DNA of 64,000 nt from Bacteroidota bacterium (GTDB taxonomy: Bacteria; Bacteroidota; Rhodothermia; Rhodothermales; JBCDJV01): assembly GCA_038747425.1 (NCBI GenBank), contig JBCDJV010000007.1:9164-73163 (forward strand), in the 5' to 3' direction. Numbering within the stretch: the first letter of the stretch is position 1; every line of letters starts with the position of its first letter. Position numbers and translations under genes: made by a program. The notes below the pieces were generated by a model. The model searched no databases and was not told the origin of the DNA. It worked only from the letters and a program-made list of their open reading frames with translations. Below are positions 3,939 to 50,635 of this stretch, piece after piece.

Positions 3939-4861
3939 GTTTGGTGCCGCGCCCTGACTGAGGGGTGATGCACACCGCTGGGTATCCCCGTTCGGACTCG
4001 GCCTTCAGCACAGCCAAGGCTGTCCTGTTTGGCCGGGCCATGCCACGGGGCGCATCGACCGCTCATGACGAGCTGGGCCCAACGACGGGGACCCTCTGGC
4101 GTGCTAGCCCGCCGGGCGACGGAGACGAGCGCTCTGCTCAGCCCGTCCCGGTTGACACCTAGCCCTGCTACGCTCCGAGACCCTCGCGCCATGCAGGCGA
4201 GGTGGCGGCTTGGCCGTAGCTGCGGCGCACGCCACCCGACAGACTCGGCCTCTCCTGACTTCGACCGGAGTCAGCCTCCTTTTGAAGGATCCTACCCCAA
4301 GCGGGGCCCGGCGCTCTCCATGCGTCCGGGCCCCGCACTGCGTTGGAGCTTGGCCCGCGAACGCATTCGTCCGTCGCCGCTCTGCTCCGGTGATCAGAGG
4401 TGGCCTCTAGCGCCGGACCTGGGCGCATGGAGCAGACGGAGGCGGCACGCTGCTGGGCGGCTCAGCGGCCCCCGACCGACCACCCCGCACCCCCCCATGG
4501 GGCCGACTTGTGCCGGGCGTTACCGCATCCCTCTCAGGGCCCCAGCGTCCGTGGGCCCATGCGGCAAACCTGGGCGCCTCTCCGGAAACTATTGCCCTCC
4601 ACGGACAACCTCTCCGCCCCTTCAGCCAGGCCCTCAGCGCAGCGTCTGCTTAAGAAAGGTCCAGTCATAGCCGATATAGGAGGCGAGCATGCATCTGTAG
4701 GTGCCTTCTAGCACGTCCCGACCACTCGTTCTGACACCGTCAAGGGCCTCGTGTAGGTTGGCATCATCATTGAATATGCTTGCGTAACGCCCCCAATGGC
4801 ATCGCGCCCACACTGGGTGTTTATCTGTTCAACCTGTTTACCTATCACAGAGAGGGTCATC

Positions 4862-5065
4862 ATGGCTATCGAAAAGTCAGTCGCTTCCAGCAGCCTTGCT
4901 GAGGTCGTCGACCGCATCCTGGACAAAGGCATCGTGGTCGATGCCTACGCTCGCGTCTCCCTCGTGGGGATCGAGCTCATCGCCATCGAGGCGCGTGTCG
5001 TCGTCTCGGGCGTCGAGACGTACCTCAAGTACGCTGAGGCCATCGGCCTGACGGCCACGGCCTAA
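4862..5065 (+). CDS. gvpA: gas vesicle structural protein GvpA
   Basis: [63 protein letters not shown] is a canonical 67-aa GvpA. The ATG at 4862 lies inside track ORF 4796..5065. Confidence 0.97.
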
Positions 5066-5124: not shown

Positions 5125-5173
5125 CCACCCCCCGCGTCGGCGGTTGCCGCTCACTTTTGTCCTTTCCGGTCCT

Positions 5174-5740
5174 ATGTCACGTCCTTCTACTTCCTATCGC
5201 GAAGCCCTGCGTGCCGATGTAGCACGTCTGCTTGAGGACGTGGCCACGACTCGTAAGGCCCAGGCTGAGGCGCTACGCGCAGAGCGTACCGCGTTCACCG
5301 AAGCCCTGCGCACCTCGGTGTCCAGCGACCTGTCCTCCGAGCGCAGCCGCGTCAAAGACGAGGTCCAGTCGCTCCTGGAGGACATCCGAGCCGAACATGC
5401 GACCCGCCGGGACACCCTGCGCACCGCTCTGCGCACCTTCCGTACGGCGCTCCGCAACGAGCGCGGCAGCGCGTCGGCCTCGGCGCTGGAAGTGGCCTCG
5501 GAGATCGGACAGGCCGCGCCTGCTCCGGCCCCGCCGAGTCCGCCCGTCGAGGAAAACCTGCTTCGCATCAAAGGGATCGGGCCCAACACCCTGGAGCGCC
5601 TGCGTCAAGCGGGCATCCACTCCTTTGCTGACCTGGCGGCCAGCACCCCAGCCGACCTTCATCAGGCGCTAGGCGGCTACGCCAAGCTGATCAACGTGGA
5701 GGAGTGGCTCTCCGAAGCCCGCAGATACGCCCAATCCTAG
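5174..5740 (+). CDS. hypothetical protein with an internally duplicated helical N-terminal region and a C-terminal helix-hairpin-helix motif; sits in the position often held by gvpC
   Basis: ATG at 5174 within track ORF 5144..5740. It contains repeated EALRA/EALRT/TALRT motifs. DVARLLEDV...EALRT parallels EVQSLLEDI...TALRN about 47 residues later. The C-terminus LLRIKGIGPNTLERLRQAGIHSFADLA is a typical HhH (GIGP) motif. Confidence 0.7.
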   Translation: MSRPSTSYREALRADVARLLEDVATTRKAQAEALRAERTAFTEALRTSVSSDLSSERSRVKDEVQSLLEDIRAEHATRRDTLRTALRTFRTALRNERGSASASALEVASEIGQAAPAPAPPSPPVEENLLRIKGIGPNTLERLRQAGIHSFADLAASTPADLHQALGGYAKLINVEEWLSEARRYAQS

Positions 5741-5870: not shown

Positions 5871-6581
5871 ATGCACCTTGGTCAACGCAAGATTCGCTCG
5901 GCTGGCCGCTCCAGCGGCAGCATCGAGATCACCCTGCCCGTGCCTCTACAGGCCCTGGAGGGGGTGCCTTGTCGGATCAACCTACGGGACGGCGTCCGGC
6001 CGGAGGTGGTCCTCCAACCGGACCTCTCTGAGGCTCAGACCCTGTTCCAGACGCTCTGGTCGCACCTCCGCACGGGGCTGCGCTCCGTAGACGACATCGG
6101 CGACTTCGCGCTGAGCCAGTTCACGGTGGCCCTGCTGCCGGTGCGCTTCTGGCAGGAACGGCCGCCCCTCTTCTACACGGACGCCTTGCTGACCCTGCAT
6201 GGCACCGGCGATGAGCGCGCCGACGCCCTCACGCGCCTGTTGGCCGGTCTCGGCGTAGGGGCCGCTCAGGCCCTTGGCTTCAGCGGAGCCCTCGGCCTAG
6301 GCCTGGGCGATGCCCTGAGCTTCGTGGCCACAGGCCGCTCCGCCGGATGGGGCGCTGAGTTCGAACGCGGGTTGGCGCACCGTTTGTACTGGGGTGAGAC
6401 CGCACCCGCCTACACGCCCCTGGACGAGGCCTTCTGGCAGGAGGCGGCTCCGCGCCTGGTCCACCTGACCGACGTGTTCTGGTCCTGGCACACCGACCCC
6501 GATCGCTACGACACCGACCGTGAACGCTGGTACCGCGCCCTGACCGCCGAGATGCGCTACGCGCCCCTGCCGATTTCCTAA
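5871..6581 (+). CDS. hypothetical protein (236 aa), possible N-terminal AbrB/SpoVT-like swapped-hairpin domain
   Basis: The ORF lies in the operon orientation between gvpA and gvpN. The N-terminus RKIRSAGRSSGSIEITLPVPLQALEGVPCRINLRDGVRPEVVLQP resembles the AbrB/MazE pattern; this is a weak judgement by eye. Confidence 0.55.
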   Translation: MHLGQRKIRSAGRSSGSIEITLPVPLQALEGVPCRINLRDGVRPEVVLQPDLSEAQTLFQTLWSHLRTGLRSVDDIGDFALSQFTVALLPVRFWQERPPLFYTDALLTLHGTGDERADALTRLLAGLGVGAAQALGFSGALGLGLGDALSFVATGRSAGWGAEFERGLAHRLYWGETAPAYTPLDEAFWQEAAPRLVHLTDVFWSWHTDPDRYDTDRERWYRALTAEMRYAPLPIS

Positions 6582-6629: not shown

Positions 6630-7604
6630 ATGGATGTGCTAGACCCCGAAGCCCCCACTGCCGTGGCCGCCGCCGCCCCCGGCGCCATCCACGTCCAGCC
6701 GCGTCCCGACTTCGTCGAGACCCCGGCCGTGCAGGCGCTCACCGAGCGGTCCCTGACCTACCTGTGGGCGGGCTTTCCCATTCATTTTCGCGGACCCGCC
6801 GGGACCGGCAAGACCACGCTGGCTCTCCACGTGGCCGCACACATCGGCCGGCCCGTCATGTTCATGACAGGCGACGAAGAGCTGTCCTCGGCGGACCTCA
6901 TCGGGTCGGAGAGCGGGTACCGCTTCAAGCGGGTCGTGGACCGGTTCATCCACACCGTCACCAAGTACGAAGAAGATGCGACCCAGCGCTGGGTGGACCA
7001 ACGCCTCACCATTGCTTGTCGCCAAGGCTACACGCTCGTCTACGACGAGTTCACCCGCTCTCGGCCTGAGGCCAACAACCCGCTGCTGACGGTCCTGGAG
7101 GAACGCGTGCTGATCCTCCCCAAGACGAACCGGGAGGAGGCCTACATTCGGGTCCATCCTGAATTCCGGGCCATCTTTACCAGCAACCCGGAGGAATATG
7201 CCGGGGTGCACCGCTCCCAGGATGCCCTGTGCGACCGGATGGTGACCATCGACCTCGACTTCAGCGACCCGGACACCGAACGCTCGATCACCGTCTCGCG
7301 CTCGGGCATTACCGCCGATCGGGCCGAGCGCATCGTGCAGCTCGTGCGCGCCTTCCGAGACCAAGGCACCCCGATGCAACTGCCCACCCTGCGGGCCTGC
7401 ATCATGATCGCCCGGGTGGCCCACATGCAACAGATCGAGCCCGCCAGCACCGATGAGCGCTTCGTCCAGCTGTGCTACGACGTGCTGGCCTCCAAGACGA
7501 CCTCCACCATGGTCTCCGTCCCGGAGCGCCAGAAGGTCTACGACCAACTCCATCGCCTCATCCATCTACACTGCGACGCCCAGACGGCGCCCTCTAGCCT
7601 ATGA
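6630..7604 (+). CDS. gvpN: gas vesicle AAA+ ATPase GvpN
   Basis: Walker A FRGPAGTGKTTLALHVA and Walker B-like TLVYDEFTRSRPE. The length (324 aa) and overall pattern fit GvpN (AAA_5 type). It lies within the gvp cluster. Confidence 0.9.
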   Translation: MDVLDPEAPTAVAAAAPGAIHVQPRPDFVETPAVQALTERSLTYLWAGFPIHFRGPAGTGKTTLALHVAAHIGRPVMFMTGDEELSSADLIGSESGYRFKRVVDRFIHTVTKYEEDATQRWVDQRLTIACRQGYTLVYDEFTRSRPEANNPLLTVLEERVLILPKTNREEAYIRVHPEFRAIFTSNPEEYAGVHRSQDALCDRMVTIDLDFSDPDTERSITVSRSGITADRAERIVQLVRAFRDQGTPMQLPTLRACIMIARVAHMQQIEPASTDERFVQLCYDVLASKTTSTMVSVPERQKVYDQLHRLIHLHCDAQTAPSSL

Positions 7605-7960
7605 AACGTCCCCGTCCCCGCGGCATGCGCGACATCCGCACGGCGCAGAACCTGCTGAACCGATCCAAGCCTAGCGGCCGTGCGCAAGCCGTCACGCAAC
7701 TGGCCCGCCTCGAGCACGAGCGCATGCGCCTCGAACGCGAGATGAAGCTCTGGGCCCAGAAATACACCCAGACCAAGAACCGGCTGCACGGCGTCCTCAA
7801 ACAGCTGTCCGACCTGGAAAACCTGTCGGACGAGCTGGCCGCCCGCGAGGGCCTCACCCCGACCAACAAACAGCTGCGCAAGCTCGCCCAGAGCGGCCTG
7901 CCGTCACGCAAGCGGGCCAGCCACGATCCGTCCCCGGCCGACTTCACGTTCGAATACTAA
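7601..7960 (+). CDS. basic coiled-coil protein (119 aa), translationally coupled to gvpN; possibly GvpV-like
   Basis: Its start ATG overlaps the gvpN stop (ATGA at 7601-7604). The segment ARLEHERMRLEREMKLWAQKYTQTKNRLHGVLKQLSDLENL is heptad-like. The GvpV assignment rests only on my memory of a similar coiled-coil pattern. Confidence 0.6.
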   Translation: MKRPRPRGMRDIRTAQNLLNRSKPSGRAQAVTQLARLEHERMRLEREMKLWAQKYTQTKNRLHGVLKQLSDLENLSDELAAREGLTPTNKQLRKLAQSGLPSRKRASHDPSPADFTFEY

Positions 7961-7993: not shown

Positions 7994-8566
7994 ATGGCAG
8001 ACTCTGATAAGCAGAAGGACCCCCGCGACGGGATCCACGTCAACCTCGACCTCGGCTTCGGTGGCCTCTTCAAAGGCCTCACGGACATGGTAAACAACCT
8101 GACCGAGCTCTCCGAAAAGGCCGAACACCTCCAGCAAGAAGCCGGGGCTGACGGCGAGCGCACGTTCCGCTTCGACGGCCTCAACATCAACGGCCTGGGC
8201 AAAGACGCCGAAGGGGTGGTGGGCATCCGCATCCGCACCCTGGACGGCGGCCAGCCGGTCGTCGAGCGCTTCGGCAACATCCGGCCCACCGACGAAGGCC
8301 CCGAGGTGGCCGACGTGCGCGAGCCCCTCGTGGATGTGTTCGATGAGCCCACCGAGCTGCTGCTTGTGGCCGAGCTCCCCGGCGTCAGCGAATCCGACAT
8401 CAGCCTGCGCGTGGAGGACGACATCCTGATCCTCGAAACCGAAGGCGACCGCCGCTACGCCAAAGAGGTCTTGCTCCCGGCGGCCGTGGACGCCACCACG
8501 CTGCAGCACACCTACACCAACGGCATCCTGGAAGTCCGTCTCCAAAAAGCTACGCCAGACGCATGA
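7994..8566 (+). CDS. Hsp20/alpha-crystallin family small heat-shock protein (GvpH-like position)
   Basis: The C-terminal alpha-crystallin domain reads LLLVAELPGVSESDISLRVEDDILILETEGDRRYAKEVLLPAAVDATTLQHTYTNGILEVRLQK. Confidence 0.85.
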   Translation: MADSDKQKDPRDGIHVNLDLGFGGLFKGLTDMVNNLTELSEKAEHLQQEAGADGERTFRFDGLNINGLGKDAEGVVGIRIRTLDGGQPVVERFGNIRPTDEGPEVADVREPLVDVFDEPTELLLVAELPGVSESDISLRVEDDILILETEGDRRYAKEVLLPAAVDATTLQHTYTNGILEVRLQKATPDA

Positions 8567-9345
8567 GCACCCTCCCAGACCCCATGGCGGCTCCGGCCGT
8601 TGACACCGCTGGGCAGTACGTGTACTGCTTCATCCGCTCCTCCGAGCCCGTCACGTTCTCGTCGACTGGGATCGGCGAGCTGAAAGGCACGGTCCGCGCC
8701 ATCCCGTACCGCGACATCGCCGTGGTGGTGAGCGAATCGCCGGTGATGATCTACCCGAGCCGCCGCCGCAATATGATGCCGCACACGCGGGTCCTGGAGG
8801 AGGTGATGGCCACGCACACCATCCTGCCGGCCCGCTTTAGCACGGTGGTCCCCCCCGAGGACGACCTCGGCGAGGACATCATTGCACCCCGCTACGAGCA
8901 GCTCGACGGCCTCTTGCACGAGATGGACGGCAAGGTGGAGCTCGGCCTACGGGTGATGTGGCATGACGGCCTCGTCTTTCAGGAGATCGTGGAGGAGCAG
9001 GATGCCATCCGCGCCCTCCGCGATCAGCTGGTGGGCCGCTCGCCCGAGGAAACGCACTATGACCGCATGCGGCTCGGAGAGATGATCGAGGCCGCCATCG
9101 AGGGCAAGCGTGCCGCCGAGGCCGCCGCCTTGCTGGACCGCCTCCGTCCCTTCGCCGCCGATGTCCGGGAGAACGACGTCCTAGGGGATCGCATGGTGCT
9201 GAACACCGCCTTCCTCGTGGATCAAGCCCAGGTGCCGGCCTTCGACGCCGCCCTGGAGGCCATCGACGCTGAGCAGAGCCACCGGATGAGCTTCACCTAC
9301 GTCGGTCCCGTGCCCCCTTACAATTTCGTCAGCATTGTGCTGTGA
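8563..9345 (+). CDS. gvpF: gas vesicle protein GvpF/GvpL family (paralogue 1)
   Basis: The start overlaps the Hsp20 stop (ATGA). Family hallmarks are present: YVYCFIRS, DIAVVVSE, HTRVLEEVMATHTILPARFSTVV and a C-terminal GPVPPYNF. Confidence 0.88.
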   Translation: MSTLPDPMAAPAVDTAGQYVYCFIRSSEPVTFSSTGIGELKGTVRAIPYRDIAVVVSESPVMIYPSRRRNMMPHTRVLEEVMATHTILPARFSTVVPPEDDLGEDIIAPRYEQLDGLLHEMDGKVELGLRVMWHDGLVFQEIVEEQDAIRALRDQLVGRSPEETHYDRMRLGEMIEAAIEGKRAAEAAALLDRLRPFAADVRENDVLGDRMVLNTAFLVDQAQVPAFDAALEAIDAEQSHRMSFTYVGPVPPYNFVSIVL

Positions 9346-9349
9346 TGAC

Positions 9350-9601
9350 ATGGGCTTCTTCACCACGCTCCTGACCTTTCCCGTCTCCGGGCCACTGCAC
9401 GGGGTGCGATGGATCGCACAGCACATGGCCGAGCAGGCGGAGCAGGAGTTTTACGACCCCGCTGTCATCAAAGAGCAGCTCCGCGCCCTTGAATACAGCT
9501 ATGAGCTCGGCGAAGTCGACGACGACACCTTCGACGCCCTCGAAGACGCCCTCATGGAACGCCTTGAAGCCAGCCGCGCGCAGCCCAAGCGTACCCCCTG
9601 A
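9350..9601 (+). CDS. gvpG: gas vesicle protein GvpG
   Basis: MGFFTTLLTFPVSGPLHGVRWIAQHMAEQAEQEFYDPAVIKEQLRALEYSYELGEVDDDTFDALEDALMERL matches the GvpG pattern. The start could alternatively be 9335. Confidence 0.85.
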   Translation: MGFFTTLLTFPVSGPLHGVRWIAQHMAEQAEQEFYDPAVIKEQLRALEYSYELGEVDDDTFDALEDALMERLEASRAQPKRTP

Positions 9602-9631: not shown

Positions 9632-9892
9632 ATGATGAACGGACCCCAGGCCGCCCAGGCGGCCAAGCAGCAACTGATGGACCTCACCGGCCACCCCGCC
9701 GACAGCGTGTCGGCCATGCGCCGCGATGACGACGGCTGGGCCATCACGGTCGAGCTGGTCGAGCTCAAGCGGATCCCGGAGTCGTCTGATCTCCTGGCCA
9801 CCTACGAGGCCAGTGTCAACGACGAGGGCATCCTGATGACCTACCAACGCACCCGCCGCTACCAACGCCATCAGGTGATGGAAGCCGGCTGA
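9632..9892 (+). CDS. gvpO: gas vesicle protein GvpO
   Basis: LTGHPADSVSAMRRDDDGWAITVELVELKRIPESSDLLATYEASVNDEGILMTYQRTRRYQR matches the conserved GvpO core as I recall it. Confidence 0.82.
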   Translation: MMNGPQAAQAAKQQLMDLTGHPADSVSAMRRDDDGWAITVELVELKRIPESSDLLATYEASVNDEGILMTYQRTRRYQRHQVMEAG

Positions 9893-9979: not shown

Positions 9980-10336
9980 ATGCAGCATACCATCCAAGGC
10001 TCTAGCCTAGGCGACATCCTGGAGCGCGTGCTCGATAAGGGCATCGTGATCGCCGGGGATATCAGCATCTCAATCGCCGAGATCGAGCTGCTGCGTATCC
10101 GCGTGCGGTTGCTCGTAGCTTCGGTGGACAAAGCCATGGAGATCGGCATCAACTGGTGGGAGAGCGACCCCTTCCTGGCTCGGCGCGCCCGCACCCTGGA
10201 AGAGGAGAACAAAGAACTGATCGACCGGCTCCGGCGCCTAGAGACGGTGCTGCGTGACCGCTATCCCGAGACGGCCTCCCTGCTGGCCGCCACCACGCCT
10301 AACCCCGGTGCTCCCCGTGTCCCTGACCGACCCTAA
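9980..10336 (+). CDS. gvpJ: gas vesicle protein GvpJ (GvpA/J/M family)
   Basis: SLGDILERVLDKGIVIAGDISISIAEIELLRIRVRLLVASVDKAMEIGINWWESDP is a GvpA-like core with the longer C-terminal tail typical of GvpJ. Confidence 0.88.
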   Translation: MQHTIQGSSLGDILERVLDKGIVIAGDISISIAEIELLRIRVRLLVASVDKAMEIGINWWESDPFLARRARTLEEENKELIDRLRRLETVLRDRYPETASLLAATTPNPGAPRVPDRP

Positions 10337-10340
10337 CCCT

Positions 10341-12524
10341 ATGGCACCCACTGCGGACCCAGCAGACCCCGCGCCCGCCGCCGCCCCCGGCCCCTTGTCT
10401 CTGCGCGTAGCCGAGGCGCGTGCCAAAGACGTGGGCCGCGGCCTCGTGCGGGTGGATCCCGATGACCTGGCCCGCCTGGACGCCGCCATCGGCGACGTGG
10501 TCGAGATCACCGGCCAGACCACCACGGTGGCCCGCCTCATGCCGGCCTTCGCGGCGGAGCGCGGCCAAGCACTCGTCCAGATGGACGGCATCCTGCGCGG
10601 CAACGCCGACACCGGACTGGGCGAGACCGTGACCCTGCGCCGTGTGGAGGCGCCCGTGGCCCGCACCGTCACGCTCCAGGGCCCCGGCGCCGTCCGACGC
10701 GGCCAAGGCCGTCACTTGGCTCGGCTGCTGGATGGCCTCCCGGTGTGCCCAGGCGACCAGGTTCGCGTAGACCTCATCGGCACCCGCGCCGAGACTTTCC
10801 GCGTGACGCAGACCGCCCCGAGCGGCGCCGTCCGCATCGGCCCGACCACCACCGTGCGCGTTGAAAAACCCGCTCAGAAGGGACGCAAGACCCCCTCGGC
10901 CCCGCCGCCCGAGGCCATCACCTACGAAGACATCGGCGGGCTCGGCTCCGCGCTCCAGCGGATCCGCGAGATGATCGAGCTGCCGCTGCGCTACCCCGAA
11001 GTGTTTGACCACCTGGGCATCGACGCCCCGAAAGGGGTGCTGCTCTACGGCCCCCCCGGCACCGGCAAGACGCTGATCGCCCGGGCCGTGGCCCACGAAA
11101 CCAACGCCCACTTCATCGTGGTCAACGGCCCCGAGGTCATCGACAAGATGTACGGGGCCAGCGAGGCTCAGCTCCGCAAGCTGTTCGAAGAGGCGAGCCG
11201 CAAGGCCCCCTCCATCCTCTTCATCGACGAGCTAGACGCCATCGCCCCCAAGCGCGACGACCTCAGCGGCGACCGCCAGGTGGAGCGGCGGGTGGTGGCT
11301 CAGCTCTTGGCCCTCATGGACGGCCTCCAGAGCCGCGGCCACGTCATCGTGGTGGCCGCCACCAACCTCCCTGACAGCCTCGATCCCGCCCTCCGGCGTC
11401 CCGGTCGCTTCGACCGCGAGATCTCGATCGGGGTGCCGGACCGCGAAGGCCGGGCCCACATCCTGGAGATCCACAGCCGCGGCATGCCCCTGGCGGACGA
11501 CATCGACCTCGATCATCTGGCCGGGCGCACGCATGGCTACGTGGGCGCCGACCTGGAGGCCCTTTGCCGCGAGGCCGCCATGCGCGCCCTGCGCCGCCTG
11601 CTGCCCGACCTCGACCTGGCCAGCGCCTCCATTCCCTACGATCAGCTGGCCCAGCTCACCGTCACCGCCGCTGACTTCGAGACGGCTCTGGCTGAGATCG
11701 AACCGTCGGCCATCCGCGAGATCTTTACCGAGATCCCTAACGTCACCTGGGCGGACGTAGGCGGGCTCGACGCCGTGAAGGAGGTGCTGCAGGAGACCGT
11801 GCAGTGGCCCCTTCAGCACCCCGACCTGTTCGAGCGCGTGGGCACCACGCCGCCCCGGGGCATCTTGCTCCACGGCCCGCCCGGCACCGGCAAAACCCTG
11901 CTGGCCAAGGCAGCGGCCCGCGAGAGCGAGGTCAACTTCATCTCCGTGAAGGGCCCTGAGCTGCTCTCGCAGTGGGTGGGCGCCTCCGAGAAAGGCGTAC
12001 GCGAGGTGTTTCGCAAAGCCCGTCAGGCGGCGCCCTGCCTCATCTTCCTGGACGAGGCCGACGCGCTGATCCCGCGCCGGACGGGGCAGCACAACCCCGT
12101 GACCGAGCGCGTTGTCAACCAGTTCCTGGCGGAGATGGACGGCATCGAGGCACTGAACGGCGTGCTGGTGCTGGCCGCTACCAACCGGCCGGACCTCATC
12201 GACCCTGCGTTGCTGCGCCCGGGCCGCTTCGAGCTTCAGATCGGCCTCGAGGCCCCCGATGCGGTGGGGCGGCGCGCCATCCTGGAGGTGCACACCCGCC
12301 GGCAACCGCTGGCGGCCGATGTGGACCTGGAGGCCCTGGCCACCCGCACGGAGGGGCTGACCGGCGCTGAGCTGGCGGGCCTCTGCCGCGAGGCCGCCAT
12401 GCGCGCCCTGCGCGCCCACGTACATCGGGAGGCTAGCGCCGATGAGCCGCTGGCGGTGAGTGGTATGGATTTTGACGCCGCACTCGACACGCTCCGTGCA
12501 TCCTCTACGCCTTCATCCTCCTGA
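10341..12524 (+). CDS. Cdc48/p97/VCP-type double-ring AAA+ ATPase embedded in the gvp operon
   Basis: ATG at 10341 within track ORF 10254..12524, 5 nt after the gvpJ stop. It has a Cdc48 N-domain-like region ([26 protein letters not shown]...VEITG). D1 has [17 protein letters not shown] and [10 protein letters not shown]2 has [17 protein letters not shown] and LIFLDEADA. The GRFD arginine-finger regions occur in both modules. Confidence 0.92.
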
Positions 12525-12528
12525 CCCC

Positions 12529-13581
12529 ATGCCGCTCTACCTGCATGGCCTGACCCCCGTGGGCGGGCCCGCGCTGTACCGCGTCCCCGACGCCGACGGC
12601 CCCGTCTACACCATCGAGCACCAGGGCATGGCCGCCGTGGTGCGCCCCACGGCCCAGCGCACGTACCAGCACCTCGAACGCCGCGAGGCGCTGCTTCACC
12701 TGGTGCTGCACCAGCGGGTGGCCGAGGCCATCCAGGCCGAGACCCCCCTCCTGCCCGTCCAGTTCGGCACCGTGCTGGACAACGAAGAGCAGGTGCGCAT
12801 GCTGCTGAGCCTGGGAGCCGATCGTTTTGCAGAAGCACTCCGGCAGTTGGACGGCCTCGTGCAGATGGAGATCACCGTGCTCTGGGATCTGGAGCACGTG
12901 TTTGCCGAGATCCGCCATGAGCCCGCAGTGGCGGCCCTCCAGCACAACCTCACGACGTGGCCAGCGGACGAGCAAGAGGCCGGTCGCGTCCAGCTCGGCC
13001 AGATTGTAAAAGAGCGCCTGGAGTACCGCCGCGCCCGCCTCAAAGCGCCCATCGACCAAGCTCTTCAGGCCGTAGCCACGGCGTCGGAGGCGCTACCGAT
13101 CCTGGACGATCGGATGGTCACGGGTCTGACGCTGCTGCTCAACGATCACCAGGAAGACGAGCTCGATGACGCGCTGACCACCCTCGACGCCGCCCATGGG
13201 GATCTGCTGACGTTCAAGTGCGTGGGACCCATGGCGCCGCACCGCTTTGCCCAGGTTCGGGTGGAGATGGTGGACGGGGCTATCCTCAACCAAGCCCGGG
13301 CCTTGCTGCGCCTGCCAGCGGGCCCGACCACGCTGGCCGACGTCAAGCGCGCCTACCGCCTCCGAGCCGGCGAGCTGCACCCAGACCATAATCCGTCCAC
13401 AGACGAAGCCACGATGCAGGCCCTGCATGATGCCTTCACGCTCATCACCACCTTCGTGGAAGGTCGGCTGGGCGCGCCCGCGCCTGGTGAGGCGCCGCAC
13501 TGCTCACTCGATCTGGCGGCTCAGCCTCACCTCCTGTACCATCTGGACCTGTCGGTACGCCGCTCAGCCTTGGCGGCCTAG
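12529..13581 (+). CDS. GvpF/GvpL family protein (paralogue 2) fused to a C-terminal DnaJ J-domain
   Basis: ATG at 12529, 5 nt after the Cdc48 stop. The N-terminal part carries the GvpF/L pattern (LYLHGL, GMAAVVRP, HQRVAEAIQAETPLLPVQFGTVL, GPMAPHRF). The C-terminal part LADVKRAYRLRAGELHPDHNPSTDEATMQALHDAFTLI is a J-domain, with the HPD tripeptide at nt 13378-13386. Confidence 0.88.
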   Translation: MPLYLHGLTPVGGPALYRVPDADGPVYTIEHQGMAAVVRPTAQRTYQHLERREALLHLVLHQRVAEAIQAETPLLPVQFGTVLDNEEQVRMLLSLGADRFAEALRQLDGLVQMEITVLWDLEHVFAEIRHEPAVAALQHNLTTWPADEQEAGRVQLGQIVKERLEYRRARLKAPIDQALQAVATASEALPILDDRMVTGLTLLLNDHQEDELDDALTTLDAAHGDLLTFKCVGPMAPHRFAQVRVEMVDGAILNQARALLRLPAGPTTLADVKRAYRLRAGELHPDHNPSTDEATMQALHDAFTLITTFVEGRLGAPAPGEAPHCSLDLAAQPHLLYHLDLSVRRSALAA

Positions 13582-13634: not shown

Positions 13635-13841
13635 ATGGAGACCCAGATTCAACACCTCATGGCCCAGCTTCGGGATCAACTGGTCACGCTGTCTCAGGAT
13701 GAGGTCCAGCAGATCGTCCAGGAAGCCCGTACCGAGGCCATGGCCGAAGCCAGAGAGATGCTGAAAGAGCACCTCTTGAAGTCGATCCTCGAGCAGGCCG
13801 TGGAGGCCTCTCAGCCTGCGCTGCATAGCGCCACGTCCTGA
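13635..13841 (+). CDS. small helical hypothetical protein (68 aa) inside the gvp operon
   Basis: The ORF is in the operon orientation with plausible codon usage. Its segment QQIVQEARTEAMAEAREMLKEHLLKSILEQAVE resembles the N-terminus of the next ORF. Confidence 0.5.
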   Translation: METQIQHLMAQLRDQLVTLSQDEVQQIVQEARTEAMAEAREMLKEHLLKSILEQAVEASQPALHSATS

Positions 13842-13850: not shown

Positions 13851-14747
13851 ATGAACCACGACGTACAACGTATTCTCGAGACCGTGCTGAGCCAGCATGG
13901 CGGCGATATCGATGCGTTCATCGAATCGTGCCGTCAGGAGGTCCTGCGTGACCTCAAGGAACGCCTGAAGGGCGAGATGCGCGCCTCGATCTTTGCTCAG
14001 ATCCGGGCGGGTCTGGACGAGGGGGGCACGCCCCCGCCCCCAACGCCGCCGCCGTCTACGCGGCCCATCGCCCTGCCGCCCCCGGCTCCGTCCGCCTCGT
14101 TCCGTACCGAGTCCATGCGGGCAGCTCTTTCCGAGACCCCGGAAGAATCGTCCGCGCCCCCGCCTCCACCCGAGGCGCACGCCGAGACAGAGCACACCCA
14201 GGAGACACCCGACCACGGGTCTCACGACCATGCGCCGCCCGGCCATGTGCCGCCCGACCATGGGGCGCACGCCGAGGAGACCGCTCCCCCAGAGGGACCC
14301 GGCGACCGCGAGCCGTCCGTTGAGGACGTCCGTGTTGAGGCCGTCCACGCCCAGGGGGCTCAGCCAGGCTTGCCCGACTCCGAGGAGCCGCCTGCGGAGC
14401 TGATGGCCGCCGGCGAGCCTTCCACGGAAGGCGTCTACACCCAGGAGGTGTACACCGCGCCAGACCCGGCCCCTGAGGGCGTCCCAGCGGACCTGGATGC
14501 CGAGATCAGCGACCTGTACGCCGCCGAAACTCGTCCGCCTGCACACCCGTGGGTCCATGCGGCCACGCAGACGCCGGCTCCGAGCGATCCGCAGGAAGAC
14601 GTACCCGCTCACCCCACGGCCGACGACGAGCTCGACGACGACATTCTGCGGGAGATTGCCGCCATCCGGCAGCAGATCTCGAAGAATGAGCAGCTCCTGA
14701 GTCAGCTCAAGCCTTTCTTCGCGGAGGAACATCCGCCGAACTCCTGA
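13851..14747 (+). CDS. hypothetical acidic Pro/His/Glu-rich, probably disordered protein (298 aa) inside the gvp operon
   Basis: It has a structured-looking N-terminus (ILETVLSQHGGDIDAFIESCRQEVLRDLKERLKGEM) and C-terminus (DDILREIAAIRQQISKNEQLLSQLKPFF). These flank a low-complexity stretch (PPPPTPPPS...HTQETPDHGSHDHAPPGHVPPDHGAHAEE). The stop lies 5 nt before the next gene. Confidence 0.6.
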   Translation: MNHDVQRILETVLSQHGGDIDAFIESCRQEVLRDLKERLKGEMRASIFAQIRAGLDEGGTPPPPTPPPSTRPIALPPPAPSASFRTESMRAALSETPEESSAPPPPPEAHAETEHTQETPDHGSHDHAPPGHVPPDHGAHAEETAPPEGPGDREPSVEDVRVEAVHAQGAQPGLPDSEEPPAELMAAGEPSTEGVYTQEVYTAPDPAPEGVPADLDAEISDLYAAETRPPAHPWVHAATQTPAPSDPQEDVPAHPTADDELDDDILREIAAIRQQISKNEQLLSQLKPFFAEEHPPNS

Positions 14748-14751
14748 ACGC

Positions 14752-15852
14752 ATGACGAGGCCTGTGCGGGTGGACCGCCTACCGGACATCGAACGCTCCC
14801 CCGCCACCCCGGCCTCTCGCCTGCACAGCCAAGCTCTAAGCGGCGTGGACATGTACCCTGATCGATCCATCGACCAAGCCGCGCTCGTAGACGACGTGCT
14901 GTCGTTGCTTCGGCATCGGCTGCAGCCGCTTCTGATGGAGGGCTTCCTGCAGGCCGCGCTGGCGCACGTCCAGGCCGAGGCCGTACCGCCCAGCTCCCCG
15001 AGCGAGGCACCCGCCCTCCAGGGCGACGGGGCCGCCGCCATGGGGCTCTATGTGCTCGGCTTGGTACCTCGCGGTGCTCATCTGGTGCTGCCGGCCTCGG
15101 GTATGGAGCCTGGCCACCCCGTGACCACCAAGGCTTACCGGGGGCTGGAGGCCGTGGTGTGCCCCGTGACGCTGGAGGCCTTCGGACCCGATGCACAGCC
15201 CGCCCAGACTAACGACCTGACGTGGCTGGAGGCCATGGCCCAGCGCCACCAGCGCTTGCAGGAAGAGGTGCGCCGCGAGGGCACCACGCTGCTGCCCATG
15301 CGGTTTGGCACCATCTGCCACGACGAGCCGGGCCTGCTCACCTTTCTGGAGGCCCACCACGACGACTTCTTGCACACCTTGAGTGCCCTGCGCGGCATGC
15401 AGGAGTGGGGGCTCAAGGTGTTCTGCGATGACACCCGCTTCAACGAGCACGTCGAGCTCGCGCCTGACGTCCCTTCGCCGGATGGAGCCTCCGAGGGTAC
15501 CGCCTACTTCCTGCGCAAGAAGCACGCACAGGCCCGGGCCCAGGCGTACGCCCAACGCTTGGCGCTCTGCCTGGATGAGATCGACCATACCCTGCAGGCC
15601 CATGCTCAGGAAGCCGTGCGCAACGAGCCGCAGGAACCACGGTGGTCCGGCCATACGCTCCCCAACGTGCTGAATGCAGCCTACCTGGTGGGACGGGACG
15701 ACGAGCCGGCGTTCCTGCAGGCCGTCGACCGCTTGGTGGCCACCTATGCCCCGCTCGGACTCGAGGTGGTGCGCACAGGGCCTTGGCCGCCCTACCACTT
15801 TGCCCGGCTCGATGCGGACTCTTCCACCGACATTGTGCCCCCTTCGGCCTGA
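14752..15852 (+). CDS. GvpF/GvpL family protein (paralogue 3)
   Basis: GLYVLGLVPRG, GLEAVVCPV, HQRLQEEVRREGTTLLPMRFGTI and a C-terminal GPWPPYHF are present. The true start may be the ATG at 14851. Confidence 0.82.
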   Translation: MTRPVRVDRLPDIERSPATPASRLHSQALSGVDMYPDRSIDQAALVDDVLSLLRHRLQPLLMEGFLQAALAHVQAEAVPPSSPSEAPALQGDGAAAMGLYVLGLVPRGAHLVLPASGMEPGHPVTTKAYRGLEAVVCPVTLEAFGPDAQPAQTNDLTWLEAMAQRHQRLQEEVRREGTTLLPMRFGTICHDEPGLLTFLEAHHDDFLHTLSALRGMQEWGLKVFCDDTRFNEHVELAPDVPSPDGASEGTAYFLRKKHAQARAQAYAQRLALCLDEIDHTLQAHAQEAVRNEPQEPRWSGHTLPNVLNAAYLVGRDDEPAFLQAVDRLVATYAPLGLEVVRTGPWPPYHFARLDADSSTDIVPPSA

Positions 15853-15864: not shown

Positions 15865-16119
15865 ATGCCTACGCGCCCCCCCTCTGCCTTTTCGCTTGAG
15901 CAGGAAGTCACTCTGCTGGACCTGCTGGACCGGATCCTGGACAAAGGCATCGTGATCCAGGGCGACGTGACCATCTCCGTGGCCGACGTCGACCTCGTGT
16001 ACCTGGGCCTCAAGGCTGTCCTGGCTTCCGTGGACACGGTGGACCGGATGCGGGCCGTGTACCTGCCGCCTGAGAGCGCTCTGGCGCTCAAGCCCGCCGC
16101 CCTGCTGGACCTCGTCTAG
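15865..16119 (+). CDS. small GvpA/J/M/S-family gas vesicle protein (GvpS-like by position before gvpL/gvpK)
   Basis: [43 protein letters not shown] is a GvpA-like core in an 84-aa protein. Confidence 0.85.
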   Translation: MPTRPPSAFSLEQEVTLLDLLDRILDKGIVIQGDVTISVADVDLVYLGLKAVLASVDTVDRMRAVYLPPESALALKPAALLDLV

Positions 16120-16167
16120 CGCAGCCCCGTTTTCGTGCCCGGCCCGTGGGCGGACCGCCCCCGACGC

Positions 16168-16854
16168 ATGCTATATCTCTACGCCTTCTGCCGTCCACCG
16201 CTGCCGCCTGACGTGCCCGGGCTGCACAAGACGATGCTACGCGCCATCCCCGTGGGGGCCCTGGTGGCCGCCGTCAGCGACCTGGACACCCCGCCCTCTG
16301 CCGGCGCCCCCCATCTCTGGGCCCACGAGCACGCGGTGGAGACGCTCATGCAGACACGCCCAGTCCTCCCGGTGCGGTTCGGCACCATGCTGCACGATGC
16401 CGAGCACCTCCAGGCCGTGACGGCCCCACAGGAGGCGGCCATGCACGAGGCGTTGGCGCGCGTGGATGGACACGTCGAGCTCAGCGTGCGCGCCCTGGCG
16501 GCCGAGCCCCCCTTGCCGCCGGCGGAAGCGCCCCCGCGCACAGGCACAGACTACCTGCGCCAGCGTCAGGCCCAACTCAGCGCCGAACAGGCCGATCATC
16601 AGCAGGCCCAACAGCGAGCGGCCGCGTTGCATGCCCAGCTGGCCCCCCTGGCGGCCGACAGCACCTACGAGGCGCGCCGTACGGCCCGCATGGTGCTCAC
16701 CGGGGCGTACCTGGTCCCCGCTGACCAACAAGACGCCTTCCAAGACGCCGTGGCGGCGCTGCAGACCCAGCACCCTGACCTGGCATTCCTCTGCACAGGC
16801 CCATGGCCTCCGTACCACTTCACTCGCCTCGCCCTGACCACCCCTACGCCATGA
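16168..16854 (+). CDS. GvpF/GvpL family protein (paralogue 4)
   Basis: ATG at 16168 (the track starts at GTG 16135). MLYLYAFCRPP, GALVAAVSDL, HEHAVETLMQTRPVLPVRFGTML and a C-terminal GPWPPYHF are present. Confidence 0.82.
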   Translation: MLYLYAFCRPPLPPDVPGLHKTMLRAIPVGALVAAVSDLDTPPSAGAPHLWAHEHAVETLMQTRPVLPVRFGTMLHDAEHLQAVTAPQEAAMHEALARVDGHVELSVRALAAEPPLPPAEAPPRTGTDYLRQRQAQLSAEQADHQQAQQRAAALHAQLAPLAADSTYEARRTARMVLTGAYLVPADQQDAFQDAVAALQTQHPDLAFLCTGPWPPYHFTRLALTTPTP

Positions 16855-17222
16855 CCTCGACGAACCCGCCCTCCGCAGCCTCGCCCAAGATCCTCAGCGA
16901 GCAGGCCGACCTCCAGGCCTTCGTGGCCGAACTGGACCCGGTGCGCCAGGGGATCCTGCCCCCGCGCGTGGCCCTGGACCCCGACTCCGCCGATCAGGGG
17001 TTGGCCAAGCTCGTCCTCACCCTGATCGAACTGCTGCGCCAGCTGATGGAGCGTCAAGCGGTGCGCCGCATGGATGCGGGCAGCCTGACCGATGACGAAG
17101 TGGAGCGCCTGGGGCTCACCCTCATGAAGCTGGAAGGCCGGATTAAAGAGCTGCAGGCCCTTTTTGGTCTGGAAGAGGAAGAACTGAACCTGAGCCTGGG
17201 CCCCCTCGGCCGCTTGCTCTGA
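16851..17222 (+). CDS. gvpK: gas vesicle protein GvpK
   Basis: The start overlaps the preceding stop (ATGA at 16851-16854). LAKLVLTLIELLRQLMERQAVRRMDAGSLTDDEVERLGLTLMKLEGRIKEL is the conserved GvpK core. Confidence 0.9.
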   Translation: MTSTNPPSAASPKILSEQADLQAFVAELDPVRQGILPPRVALDPDSADQGLAKLVLTLIELLRQLMERQAVRRMDAGSLTDDEVERLGLTLMKLEGRIKELQALFGLEEEELNLSLGPLGRLL

Positions 17223-17345
17223 AACAATGCCCCCGGTACGGACACCCACATTCATGAAGAGGCGGTGGGGCCCTGCGGCAGCTCGCAACCAACCGAGGGC
17301 TCCATCGTTACAAGTTTCCCGATCGATACACGGACTTGTTGGCGC

Positions 17346-19733
17346 ATGGACATGGCTACGACGTTCCCGTTCACCCATCGACTGAGCCTGACGCCACTAG
17401 CGGCGTTCTGGCGCAGCAAGGCGGCCGACAAGGCCGATCCGCTCCACCAGTTTGCCCGCCAGATCGCCCGTGACCTGGACCGGGCCCCCGTCTTGGAGGG
17501 CCCCCTCGACGAGGTGTCGGTCCTCGATCCGCACTGGCCGCTCCTGGAGCGCATGATGATGGCCATCACCCCGCCCTCCTCCAAAGAGATCGCGGCGGTG
17601 GCCGTGAGCCAGCCCTTCTCGATGCGGCCGTTCTACACGACGCCGGCCTTCGACCGGCTGGGCATGAACCACACGTCTGAGGACGAGGTCGCCGCCGCGC
17701 TCAGCATGAGCACGGAGGCCCTGATGAGCCTGAAGGCCCTGCAAGCCTACTTCTGGGTACTCATCGAATGCTACGGCCTCGACCTGGACTTCGACCAGCA
17801 GTTCCCGCTCGTCTTGCCCATCACCGACGAAGAGACGGGCCTGCCGCGCTACTACAAGATCCGCATCAACCCCAGCTTCTGCGCCCTGCGCCACGAGGGC
17901 GACCTTCCGCCGCTCTCCCCAGCCGATCTGAACCGGCTCCTCGAAGAGCCCACCAACCTCGACGTTTGGAAAACGCTCCTGCCCCCAGACCAGTTTGTCT
18001 TCGAGGGCATCGTCATCTACGAGGGCATCGACATCACGGAGCAGCACCTGCTGTCCAAGCTCAAGGACGACCTGCTGAAGAAGGGGTCGATGACCACGCC
18101 TGGGCAGGTGAGCCATCTGCAGGAGCGCCTCCGCTCGCTGCTCCGCAAGCCGGACCTGGAGCTCGGCTTCATGGCCCTCACCTTTGGCGACCTGGAGATG
18201 GTGAGCGGAGCCACACCCATCGGGCGCAGCCTGCTGCTAGCCGATGGGCAGATGCCTGCCTGCCCGCTTCGCCATCAGTCCACGTATGCCAAAGCCCTCA
18301 AGGAAAGCAGAACGCAGCTCTTCCACGACCTGCAGACCTACGAGACCCAGAGTGGATTTGAGACCCTCTTGATGGAGCAGGGCTTCCGCAACCTGCTCCT
18401 GGCCCCCCTCTTCGATGGCGAACAGGTGATCGGCTTCCTGGAGCTGGCCTCGCCGAACCGGGGCGATATCAACGCCTTCAACGCGCGGCTGCTGGACGAT
18501 GTAGCGTCCGTCTTTGCCACGGCCATGTCACGGACGTTGGAGGACCGAGAAGACCGGGTGCAGGCCATCATCAAGGAAGAATACACGGCGCTCCACCCGG
18601 TGGTGGAGTGGCGCTTCCGCGAGGCCGCCCTGGCCCGTCTGGAGCGCATGGAGCGCGGCCACCGGGGCGAAGCCGAGTCCATCGTCTTCGAAGGGGTGCA
18701 CCCCCTCTACGGGCTGGCCGACATCCGTGGCTCCTCCACACGGCGCAATGCGGCCATTCAGGCGGACCTGGTGGAACAGGTGGGCTTGGCGCTCCTCGTC
18801 ATCGTGGAGGCCAGCACCCATCGCCACCTCCCCATCTTGGACGCGCTGGGCTACCGCCTGGGCCAGTACATCAGCGACATCGGGACCGGCCTCAGCTCCG
18901 GCGATGACCAGAGCGCGCTCGCCGTGCTGCGTCAAGAGCTGGAGCCGCTGTTCGACCACCTGGCCACCTTCGACCCCAGCGTCGAAGCTCGCATCCGGGC
19001 CTACAAAGACGCGCTGGACCCGGAGCTGGGGGTGGTCTACCGCCAGCGTAAGGCCTTCGAGGACAGCGTCATGCTGATCAACGACACGATCGGGCAGTTT
19101 ATCGATCAGCAGGAGGCCACCGCCCAGGGCATGTTCCCCCACTACTACGAGCGGTACAAGACCGACGGGGTGGACTACAACATCTACATTGGGCAGTCGC
19201 TCCTGCAACGGGGAGACTTTGACCCGATCTACTTGCGTAATCTGCGCCTCTGGCAGCTGATGATGACGTGCGGCGTGGCCTGGGAGATGGAGACGCTCAA
19301 GCCCTCCCTCCCCATGGAGCTGGACGTGGCGCACCTCATCCTCGTGCAGGACATCCCGCTCTCCATCCGCTTCCGCATGGACGAGAAGCAGTTCGATGTG
19401 GATGGCGCCTACAACATCCGCTACGAGATCGTCAAGAAGCGTATCGACAAGGCGCGCATCAAGGGCACCGGAGAGCGGCTCACGCAGCCTGGCTACCTGG
19501 CCATCGTGTATTCTCAGCCCGAGGAAGCCCGCGAGTATCTTCAGTACCTGGACTACCTGTCGGCCGCCAGCTACACGGAAGGCGAGATCGAGCACCTGGT
19601 CCTCGAAGACCTGCAGGGGGTGCAGGGCCTCCGCGCCCTCCGCGTCGCGATCGCGTCCACGAGCCCCGACGACTACTCGTCAATCGGCGCCGACCGGACG
19701 ATGCACATCGTGCAAACGCTGACAAACGCGTGA
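17346..19733 (+). CDS. large GAF-domain-containing protein (about 795 aa), last gene of the plus-strand gvp block; candidate sensor/regulator
   Basis: ATG at 17346 within track ORF 17265..19733. The central segment GFRNLLLAPLFDGEQVIGFLELASPNRGDINAFNARLLDDVASVFATAMSRT is GAF-like. I do not recognise the flanking N- and C-terminal regions. Confidence 0.75.
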   Translation: MDMATTFPFTHRLSLTPLAAFWRSKAADKADPLHQFARQIARDLDRAPVLEGPLDEVSVLDPHWPLLERMMMAITPPSSKEIAAVAVSQPFSMRPFYTTPAFDRLGMNHTSEDEVAAALSMSTEALMSLKALQAYFWVLIECYGLDLDFDQQFPLVLPITDEETGLPRYYKIRINPSFCALRHEGDLPPLSPADLNRLLEEPTNLDVWKTLLPPDQFVFEGIVIYEGIDITEQHLLSKLKDDLLKKGSMTTPGQVSHLQERLRSLLRKPDLELGFMALTFGDLEMVSGATPIGRSLLLADGQMPACPLRHQSTYAKALKESRTQLFHDLQTYETQSGFETLLMEQGFRNLLLAPLFDGEQVIGFLELASPNRGDINAFNARLLDDVASVFATAMSRTLEDREDRVQAIIKEEYTALHPVVEWRFREAALARLERMERGHRGEAESIVFEGVHPLYGLADIRGSSTRRNAAIQADLVEQVGLALLVIVEASTHRHLPILDALGYRLGQYISDIGTGLSSGDDQSALAVLRQELEPLFDHLATFDPSVEARIRAYKDALDPELGVVYRQRKAFEDSVMLINDTIGQFIDQQEATAQGMFPHYYERYKTDGVDYNIYIGQSLLQRGDFDPIYLRNLRLWQLMMTCGVAWEMETLKPSLPMELDVAHLILVQDIPLSIRFRMDEKQFDVDGAYNIRYEIVKKRIDKARIKGTGERLTQPGYLAIVYSQPEEAREYLQYLDYLSAASYTEGEIEHLVLEDLQGVQGLRALRVAIASTSPDDYSSIGADRTMHIVQTLTNA

Positions 19734-19785
19734 GTGCAGGCCGCGGCCTGGATGAGGGCGGAGACCTGAGTCCCCCGTTCTCGCT

Positions 19786-20607
19786 CTACAGCTCGATCGC
19801 CAAGCCTTCGTAGGCGGCTGTGCACGCGATGCCGTGGGGCGCCAGGTAGGCCCGCACCTCGGCCTGCAGGGCGTCTAGCTCGTCGTCGGTGCGCTCCGGG
19901 GCGTGATGGATGAGGACCAGGTGCTTGGCCTGAGCGGCCCTGGCCAGGTCAGCGGCCCGGCGGATGCGCGTGTGTCCCCAGCCGGCCTTGCCGGGCAAGT
20001 CCGACGCCACCAGGTGGGCATCGTGGGTGAGCACGTCGGCCCCTTGGCAAAAGGCCACGAAGGTCTCAAACGGGGCGCCGTCTGCGGCATCCAGTTCGTT
20101 GTCTGTGAGGTGAACCCACGTCTTCTCTGCGCAGGTGATCCGGTACCCGTAGGCGCCGCCAGGGTGATTGAGCGGCATCGTGCGCACGTGGAACCCACGC
20201 GGTGCCAGAAAGGCGGGCCCGTCCGCCACGCGATGGCAGGTGGCGGCCACCATGGACGGCGTCATGGGGTAGAGCACGCCATCTAGGAGATCGAGCGGAG
20301 ACCACACCTCGCCTTCGTGGGTGTAGTCCACGAGGTGGAGCGTGCGGCCGGGTTGCCAGAGCGGCCAGAAGAACGGAAAGCTGCTCACATGGTCCAGGTG
20401 CCGATGGCTGAACATGAGCACAAGGTCCAGGCCCCGCGGGGCCTCACGGAGCGCCTGCCCGAGGCGAAAGAGGCCAGTCCCCGCATCCAGGATCAACAGC
20501 GTTCCTTCGTGCTCCACGGTCACGCAGGTGGTGTTCCCCCCGTACCGAACCGTCTGTGGTCCTGGCGACGGGATAGAGCCTCGAACCCCCCAGAAACGAA
20601 TGGTCAT
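19786..20607 (-). CDS. MBL-fold metallo-hydrolase (PhnP/class-II phosphodiesterase-like)
   Basis: MTIRFWGVRGSIPSPG...TCVTVEHEGTLLILDAGTG...SHRHLDHV is the HxHxDH metal motif of the metallo-beta-lactamase fold. The ATG is at 20607. Confidence 0.8.
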   Translation of the reverse strand: MTIRFWGVRGSIPSPGPQTVRYGGNTTCVTVEHEGTLLILDAGTGLFRLGQALREAPRGLDLVLMFSHRHLDHVSSFPFFWPLWQPGRTLHLVDYTHEGEVWSPLDLLDGVLYPMTPSMVAATCHRVADGPAFLAPRGFHVRTMPLNHPGGAYGYRITCAEKTWVHLTDNELDAADGAPFETFVAFCQGADVLTHDAHLVASDLPGKAGWGHTRIRRAADLARAAQAKHLVLIHHAPERTDDELDALQAEVRAYLAPHGIACTAAYEGLAIEL

Positions 20608-20662
20608 GATCCCAGCAGGCGGACCCGCAGACAAACGGAGAGGTGAACGGTGCCGCGCCAGC

Positions 20663-50549: not shown

Positions 50550-50635
50550 GTTCGTCGACTTCCCAGGCTTGGGCACGGCCGATATTCCACCCGCGAACGC
50601 ATCCCGCCTTGCGCAGGGTGCTCAACAGAGAAGGT

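Follow-up and report, generated by a model that had tools for sequence, protein, structure and literature searches.

The described systems closest to the protein studied here are the archaeal Cdc48 enzymes, represented by VAT of Thermoplasma (PDB 5g4f, 5g4g), in which an N domain is followed by the ATPase modules D1 and D2. p97/VCP/Cdc48 belongs to the same family and supplies the concept of extraction from stable assemblies, with clients reached through adaptors of the N domain, the substrate- and adaptor-binding domain of Cdc48-type enzymes. Here we describe a member of this family encoded within a gas-vesicle (gvp) operon, on a 64,000-nucleotide (nt) stretch of a Bacteroidota metagenome-assembled genome (MAG; assembly GCA_038747425.1, contig JBCDJV010000007.1), hereafter the window. 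The protein, which we call CDC48, is in itself an unremarkable representative of an established family, and NCBI already annotates it accordingly. What is new is that its gene is a conserved component of gas-vesicle operons that form one large family, alongside the gene for a GvpL protein that carries a J domain (GvpL::J).

Compared with archaeal Cdc48, the window protein has the same order of N domain, D1 and D2, alignable with VAT from end to end (733 bits), and the same aromatic pore-loop residues in D1 and D2. It differs in being bacterial, in lacking the acidic tail and the HbYX motif with which most of the archaeal sequences that we aligned would dock to the 20S proteasome, and in having a clade-specific N domain, a two-residue insertion in D1 and a location in a gas-vesicle operon. 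Relative to p97, it lacks a ubiquitin system, recognisable UBX/SHP adaptors and a C-terminal HbYX motif, and its D1 pore loop carries an aromatic residue that is shared by VAT and missing from D1 of p97. Another bacterial Cdc48 homologue, Cpa, has poorly defined physiological clients. This actinobacterial, Cdc48-like protein reportedly interacts with the bacterial 20S proteasome (work of Ziemski et al. 2018, eLife); going by that description, the gvp-linked CDC48s differ from it in having no docking motif and a defined genomic partner system.

Gas-vesicle clusters already encode an ATPase, GvpN, and the two proteins are not homologous beyond the AAA+ core: GvpN is a single-module enzyme of the MoxR/AAA_5 type (324 amino acids) needed for vesicle enlargement, whereas CDC48 is a two-module unfoldase of the classic clade with an N domain. 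In its set of parts, the cluster resembles the ClpB/Hsp104–DnaK/DnaJ–small heat-shock protein (sHsp) system, since the same three roles, a sHsp holdase, a J-domain recruiter of Hsp70 and a double-ring motor, are encoded together; the motor of the gvp cluster, however, is a Cdc48 and not a Clp/Hsp100 protein. The only precedent for an extra ATPase other than GvpN is ArsA, a SIMIBI/GET3-like P-loop protein and not an AAA+ unfoldase; ArsA-like ATPases and Hsp20 are conserved in gvp clusters (Castillo and Saier 2010, PMC2963123).

CDC48 protein and its motor motifs

The CDC48 gene is a single open reading frame (ORF) with an ATG at 10341 and a TGA at 12522–12524, and the protein divides as follows:

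10341–12524, + strand: CDC48/VAT-family double-ring AAA+ ATPase, 727 amino acids (TIGR01243, Pfam, VAT 5g4f)
10401–10871, + strand: N domain, residues 21–177 (Pfam CDC48_N and CDC48_2)
11037–11606, + strand: D1 AAA module and lid (Walker A K243, Walker B E297)
11859–12431, + strand: D2 AAA module and lid (Walker A K518, Walker B E572)

The product is identical to NCBI MEM1125597.1, which is annotated 'CDC48 family AAA ATPase' and belongs to a MAG labelled Bacteroidota bacterium. The NCBIfam model TIGR01243 (CDC48) covered residues 20–697 with 896.1 bits against a cut-off of 802.65, and the hidden Markov model E-values (1.7e-269) exclude a chance match. Pfam CDC48_N (residues 21–103, E 1.8e-22, 79.8 bits) and CDC48_2 (residues 124–177, E 2.4e-10, 40.3 bits) both scored above their gathering scores and delimit, at the level of sequence, the two-part N domain of double-psi barrel and beta-clam; two AAA modules (9.7e-94) and two AAA_lid_3 domains complete the protein. 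Among solved structures, VAT 5g4f was nearest, followed by p97 and Cdc48, with human p97 scoring about 640 bits.

These matches bear out the original prediction of a Cdc48-type N domain joined to two complete Walker A/B modules. Its view that this is a second ATPase besides GvpN also held, GvpN having its own gene at 6630–7604, as did its identification of the neighbours as gvpJ (9980–10336) and a gvpL paralogue (12529–13581), with which the Pfam families agree. The spacers, given as 5 nt, had to be corrected: both measure 4 nt, and the first position of the downstream gene is 12529 instead of 12530.

No match to a GvpN model appeared among the 25 best of 63 NCBIfam families. Clp_N, the M domain and ClpB_D2-small were likewise absent from the 25 best of 43 Pfam families, so any coupling to Hsp70 would be indirect or of a new kind; a match to AAA_2 was weak (37 bits). 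Two CDC48-sized ORFs in the window were considered as a second CDC48 and rejected: the ORF at 22510–24690 (− strand) encodes polyphosphate kinase 1, and the ORF at 44579–46729 has no family. A ClpC-type Hsp100 (Clp_N, UVR, AAA_2, ClpB_D2-small) is encoded at 50438–53245, so that the gvp-linked CDC48 is not the only double-ring ATPase of the genome, which has a conventional Clp enzyme as well.

Both rings carry the Walker A motif GPPGTGKT (K243, K518), a Walker B motif (IDELD with E297 in D1, LDEAD with E572 in D2), sensor-1 (AATN in each) and an arginine-finger region (RRPGRFDRE in D1, with R352/R353/R356; LRPGRFE in D2). With minor variation, these elements are intact in both rings of all 48 members of the gvp clade defined below. 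Pore loop-1 reads K[W/F/Y/M]YG in D1 of the clade (KMYG in the window copy, K269-M-Y271-G) and xWVG in D2 (QWVG, Q544-W545-V-G); aromatic pore loops in both rings also occur in the other, mostly archaeal, CDC48s that we aligned. By homology to the structures of VAT and p97, we infer a stacked double-ring hexamer that would thread its substrates at the expense of ATP.

Other features set the clade apart. A two-residue insertion after the D1 Walker B motif (D311-R312), in what we take by homology to be D1 pore-loop 2, is present in at least 90% of the gvp-clade proteins and in 0 of 27 other CDC48s aligned. The gvp-clade proteins stop a few residues beyond the D2 lid (the window copy ends ...RASSTPSSS, 27 residues past the D2 module and lid), and a C-terminal HbYX motif was found in none of the 48 aligned, whereas most archaeal sequences in the same alignment have HbYX-type ends (...SYM, MYG, GYL, AYG, LYR, FYG). 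Sequence identity within the clade, compared with identity to other CDC48s, was 0.67 against 0.33 for the N domain, 0.83 against 0.64 for D1 and 0.69 against 0.55 for D2. The N domain thus shows the largest clade-specific gain of the three, and this conservation suggests that it may serve a fixed client or adaptor.

Linkage to gas-vesicle clusters

Genomic context was assessed in three independent samples, which gave concordant results: a genome collection, in which one genome per species was scanned with the CDC48 protein and then searched by tblastn with the Gvp proteins of the window; metagenome homologues of CDC48; and metagenome contigs anchored on GvpN. In about 19 independent loci this CDC48 lineage lies inside a gvp cluster; they come from Chloroflexota, Alphaproteobacteria, Bacteroidota MAGs and unbinned metagenome contigs. 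In the genome scan, the nearest bacterial relatives were all gvp-linked, namely loci from Anaerolineales (L001), Thermoflexales (L004), Hyphomicrobiales/Alphaproteobacteria (L002/L003), Rhizobiales (L006) and Alphaproteobacteria (L045). The remaining loci of that scan, archaeal or bacterial (for example L027–L035), gave no gvp matches. The CDC48 gene of L045 (about 10001–12106) looks split, with one ORF holding only residues 219–535, which suggests a frameshift or an assembly error.

All seven metagenome homologues sampled lie in gvp clusters (P0014, P0003, P0089, P0102, P0036, P0060 and P0078). Their gene order runs gvpA, two genes of unknown function, gvpN, a further unknown, hsp20, gvpF, gvpG, gvpO and gvpJ, then zero to three small genes, CDC48, gvpL::DnaJ, sometimes ArsA, and gvpL, gvpS, gvpF and gvpK. 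From the opposite direction, six of six GvpN-anchored contigs that reach past gvpJ have CDC48 there (L090, L098, L099, L102, L103 and L105), and GvpN is encoded beside CDC48 at every locus of the cluster family that covers the gvpN position. gvpJ, 65–75% identical in related loci, precedes CDC48 there immediately or almost so. In the alphaproteobacterial cluster L002 the order changes to gvpJ, gvpL::J, gvpL, gvpS, gvpF and gvpK, with CDC48 at the end of the operon. No conserved protease gene was found in the seven metagenome clusters that we read.

The persistence of the linkage when genes are rearranged, in loci that bear three phylum-level labels, speaks for a functional connection. The earlier claim that the gene is an operon member and not a neighbour thus stands, at about 19 loci in at least three phyla with rearranged orders included, and CDC48 is not a chance neighbour in the gvp operon.

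The 120 best database homologues of CDC48 are 60–69% identical and come from Chloroflexota wherever a source is named. The MAG that contains the window is labelled Bacteroidota, and the window has DUF4953 and DUF5117 genes; the sister locus L081 encodes a Por_Secre_tail protein at 17585–20923. Despite this label, the gvp and CDC48 genes of the window are nearest to Chloroflexota versions, which points to a horizontal transfer of the complete cluster, or else to mis-binning.

Phylogeny of the gvp-linked lineage

The phylogeny against other CDC48s that the original prediction had proposed was built as a neighbour-joining tree of 75 CDC48 sequences with 100 bootstraps. Gvp-linked CDC48s of the Chloroflexota/Bacteroidota type were monophyletic in 100 of 100 bootstraps, and a wider clade that adds the alphaproteobacterial sequences and a Ktedonobacterales sequence (L011) was recovered in 99 of 100. 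The gvp-linked sequences by themselves were not supported as strictly monophyletic (24 of 100), because the unlinked L011 branches among the alphaproteobacterial sequences. The ancestor of the gvp-linked lineage was probably a free-standing CDC48 of a bacterium.

J-domain GvpL and small heat-shock protein

The most informative mechanistic clue is the J-domain fusion on the adjacent GvpL, which the original prediction had overlooked. The segment is placed as follows:

13291–13458, + strand: J-domain segment of GvpL, about residues 255–310, reading KRAYRLRAGELHPDHNP

Its His-Pro-Asp (HPD) tripeptide, which in J domains lies between helices II and III, stands at residues 284–286 (nt 13378–13386), and all 12 aligned GvpL::J orthologues have H284, P285 and D286 unchanged. 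In the window copy the Pfam DnaJ match is below threshold (E 3.2e-4, 21.2 bits against 27.8) with the KRAYRLRAGELHPDHNP motif intact; in orthologues the same model reaches E ≤ 1e-5. The gene follows CDC48 at a spacing of 1–23 nt in the loci read, and in L002 GvpL::J is still present though CDC48 has been relocated. A sHsp of the GvpH type was found in all related clusters. Searches of a large protein database for homologues of GvpL::J returned only three proteins with a single sequence and five with an alignment.

Further genes occur beside CDC48 in some related loci. A small protein with faint matches to the DnaJ-type CXXCXGXG zinc finger lies directly upstream of CDC48 in two clusters of the Chloroflexota type (L083, 9598–10008, where it overlaps the CDC48 start; L084, 9184–9597), and the window has no such protein. 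A two-domain ArsA-type ATPase is encoded just after gvpL::J in L084 (13285–15273), L085 (10849–12885) and L086 (13961–15991), so that ArsA co-occurs with CDC48 and these operons hold three ATPases, GvpN, CDC48 and ArsA. ArsA is absent from the window, where the ORFs at 13635–13841 and 13851–14747 occupy that position.

Gas-vesicle operon of the window

All genes from 4796 through 17222 lie on the + strand with short gaps between them. Besides CDC48, the cluster consists of:

4796–5065, + strand: gvpA, major shell protein (PF00741, 55.1 bits, residues 33–71; 64–85% identity in related loci)
5144–5740, + strand: HHH_5/DUF4332 protein, the domain being C-terminal
5871–6581, + strand: conserved protein without Pfam or NCBIfam family, upstream of gvpN
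6630–7604, + strand: gvpN, single-module MoxR-type AAA+ (TIGR02640, 370.6 bits against a cut-off of 266.8)
7601–7960, + strand: conserved protein without Pfam or NCBIfam family, downstream of gvpN
7994–8566, + strand: sHsp, GvpH/Hsp20-like (Pfam GvpH, HSP20 and ArsA_HSP20; NCBIfam Hsp20, 133 bits)
8563–9345, + strand: gvpF/L paralogue 1 (PF06386, 230.6 bits)
9335–9601, + strand: gvpG (PF05120, 83.1 bits)
9632–9892, + strand: gvpO (PF05800, 94.6 bits)
9980–10336, + strand: gvpJ, GvpA/J/M family (PF00741, 59.5 bits; top NCBIfam match halo_gas_GvpJ)
12529–13581, + strand: GvpL/F paralogue with C-terminal J domain (GvpL_GvpF, 158.8 bits)
13635–13841, + strand: 68-amino-acid ORF, no family match
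13851–14747, + strand: 298-amino-acid Pro/Glu-rich low-complexity ORF, no family match
14752–15852, + strand: gvpL/F paralogue 3 (PF06386, 185.2 bits)
15865–16119, + strand: small GvpA-family protein, GvpS/M-like (PF00741, 66.2 bits)
16135–16854, + strand: gvpF/L paralogue 4 (PF06386, 173.6 bits)
16803–17222, + strand: gvpK, last gene of the cluster (PF05121, 118.1 bits, residues 55–139)

The true start of gvpA is probably internal to the ORF at 4796–5065. The HHH_5/DUF4332 protein occupies the usual gvpC position after gvpA, and larger versions of it (284–437 amino acids) are found in related loci. The two proteins flanking gvpN (5871–6581 and 7601–7960) recur at 41–55% identity in most of the Chloroflexota/Bacteroidota-type clusters inspected and are likely to be undescribed Gvp accessory proteins. 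Directly downstream of gvpK lies a gene for an 822-amino-acid GAF-domain protein (17265–19733); in related loci, genes for PAS/GAF histidine kinases and response regulators lie instead on the upstream side of gvpA, and these proteins are possible regulators of the clusters.

A promoter scan gave no sigma-70-like sites, as expected for a Bacteroidota-type genome, and a terminator scan gave no convincing terminator between gvpJ, CDC48 and gvpL. The G+C content of the window is 0.61–0.70, and the base composition of the CDC48 gene resembles that of the rest of the cluster.

Discussion

The original prediction had proposed that CDC48 extracts, remodels or controls the quality of shell proteins, or disassembles vesicles. 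These proposals are plausible from the sequences, and they fit the VAT-like aromatic pore loops, the absence of a tail for docking to the proteasome, and the sHsp and J-domain GvpL encoded in the same operon. Our preferred reading, on which our judgement is evenly balanced, is a cluster-encoded proteostasis module in which CDC48 would unfold or extract off-pathway assemblies of Gvp proteins, or free clients from their GvpF/L chaperones, during biogenesis, releasing its substrates and not degrading them. CDC48 would then be a dedicated unfoldase, specific to one widespread family of gas-vesicle operons, whose hexameric double ring would thread polypeptides through aromatic pore loops using ATP in both rings.

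GvpA/J/M proteins form aggregates when chaperones are missing and are bound by GvpF/L proteins (PMC9501494; PMC10903477), which would account for a cluster that encodes a candidate holdase (sHsp), a candidate Hsp70 recruiter (GvpL::J) and a threading motor (CDC48). In the mechanism that we propose, CDC48 would act as the motor of this three-part, operon-encoded module during vesicle biogenesis. The GvpH-type sHsp would hold aggregation-prone proteins of the GvpA/J/S family, and GvpL::J would bind these clients in the manner of GvpL/F proteins, with its HPD motif serving to recruit DnaK. CDC48 would then unfold or extract off-pathway aggregates, or strip the GvpF/L chaperones from their clients, and Gvp subunits would thereby remain competent for insertion. 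With no proteasome-docking tail and no conserved protease gene, CDC48 most likely releases its substrates instead of degrading them. The more specific idea that CDC48, GvpL::J and the GvpH-type sHsp form an Hsp70-linked unfold-and-deliver machine for the amyloid-like shell, or a machine for its extraction or disassembly, we put forward only tentatively.

Several observations weigh against a dedicated module of this kind. L011, a member of the wider CDC48 clade, has no gvp genes in its 11-kb contig, and its CDC48 neighbours encode an acyl-CoA dehydrogenase and a MerR regulator. Another type of cluster also encodes GvpL::J (L114, 2803–3882; L116, 2076–3161), there directly after a gene for a 170-amino-acid GvpA-family protein, and no GvpN or CDC48 is visible in these contigs, which are 6–9 kb long and end just after gvpJ. 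We know of no Hsp70-binding element, such as the M domain of ClpB, in Cdc48-type enzymes; a coupling between CDC48 and the J domain is for this reason conjecture, based on adjacency. Last, Halobacterium, Anabaena, Bacillus megaterium and Serratia make vesicles without any Cdc48 (PMC9501494), so the function of CDC48 would have to be accessory or lineage-specific.

The main rival to a role in biogenesis is disassembly or recycling, in which CDC48 would extract GvpA from collapsed or surplus vesicles for clearance or reuse. As a processive unfoldase that resembles VAT and has an aromatic pore loop in each ring, CDC48 is a type of motor that suits a very stable polymer, the conserved N domain could recognise a feature of the shell, and a dedicated mechanism of gas-vesicle degradation was an open question in a 2024 structural review (PMC10903477); if CDC48 acted in this way, it would be the missing degradation machinery. 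We nevertheless consider this role rather unlikely. The gene is translationally packed, with 4-nt spacers on both sides, in the middle of a biogenesis operon, so that its product is synthesised alongside the structural and assembly proteins and not under separate control; the conserved partners (sHsp, J-domain GvpL and GvpJ) point to unassembled subunits, and no protease is conserved nearby in the clusters read. The same lack of a conserved protease, together with the absence of HbYX or any other recognisable protease-docking element, makes it improbable that CDC48 is a regulatory unfoldase that would feed a Gvp regulator or a stoichiometry-limiting accessory protein to a cellular protease. 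Such a role would parallel the GvpD-dependent loss of GvpE: the balance of accessory Gvp proteins matters, and in haloarchaea the NTP-binding GvpD removes the activator GvpE (PMC9501494). gvpD/E are missing from the bacterial clusters, which have sensor or regulator genes at their flanks (the GAF protein at 17265–19733, PAS/GAF kinases and response regulators), yet CDC48 sits among structural and chaperone genes and not beside these regulators.

It is also conceivable that CDC48 has no part in the operon beyond its position and is a passenger, be it a general housekeeping Cdc48, an AAA ATPase of the defence type or a mobile insertion. CDC48-family proteins do occur in many bacteria outside gvp clusters (L011, L027–L035), and the PADLOC models for IetA and TRIP13 match the AAA modules. 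A linkage kept at about 19 loci in three phyla through rearrangement, an N domain conserved as the clade's own and a base composition like that of the rest of the cluster render this reading highly improbable. An assignment to the IetAS/IteA anti-phage ATPases was rejected: NCBIfam IteA scored 253.9 bits against a cut-off of 510, and the PADLOC IetA matches are generic and at the level of modules, with 256 bits compared with 896 for CDC48. No IetS-like partner was found among the neighbours scanned.

Full-text literature searches returned no description of a Cdc48-type ATPase or of a GvpL::J fusion in gvp clusters and no genetic work on a need for CDC48 in vesicle formation, and the sole mention of CDC48 in a gas-vesicle paper concerned Cdc48d as a Ni-NTA contaminant. 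The 2024 review named as open both by what means GvpA stays soluble and is directed to its place in the wall and whether a specific mechanism of degradation exists (PMC10903477), and CDC48, the sHsp and the J-domain GvpL constitute a concrete, genetically testable candidate for both questions. In the engineering of acoustic reporters, heterologous expression of gvp clusters of this type may depend on the CDC48 module, which might also raise the yield of aggregation-prone shell proteins. To the AAA+ field, the clusters offer a bacterial Cdc48 lineage with an obvious set of candidate clients, which is rare because the roles of bacterial Cdc48 proteins are largely unknown. In the bacteria that carry these operons, CDC48 is probably a dedicated chaperone motor for very sticky shell proteins. 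Should the Hsp70-linked machine put forward above, or its alternative for extraction or disassembly, prove real, a bacterial Cdc48 would for the first time have a defined physiological client system. It would also be the first known machinery dedicated to subunits of the GvpA family, whether to solubilise, insert or remove them.

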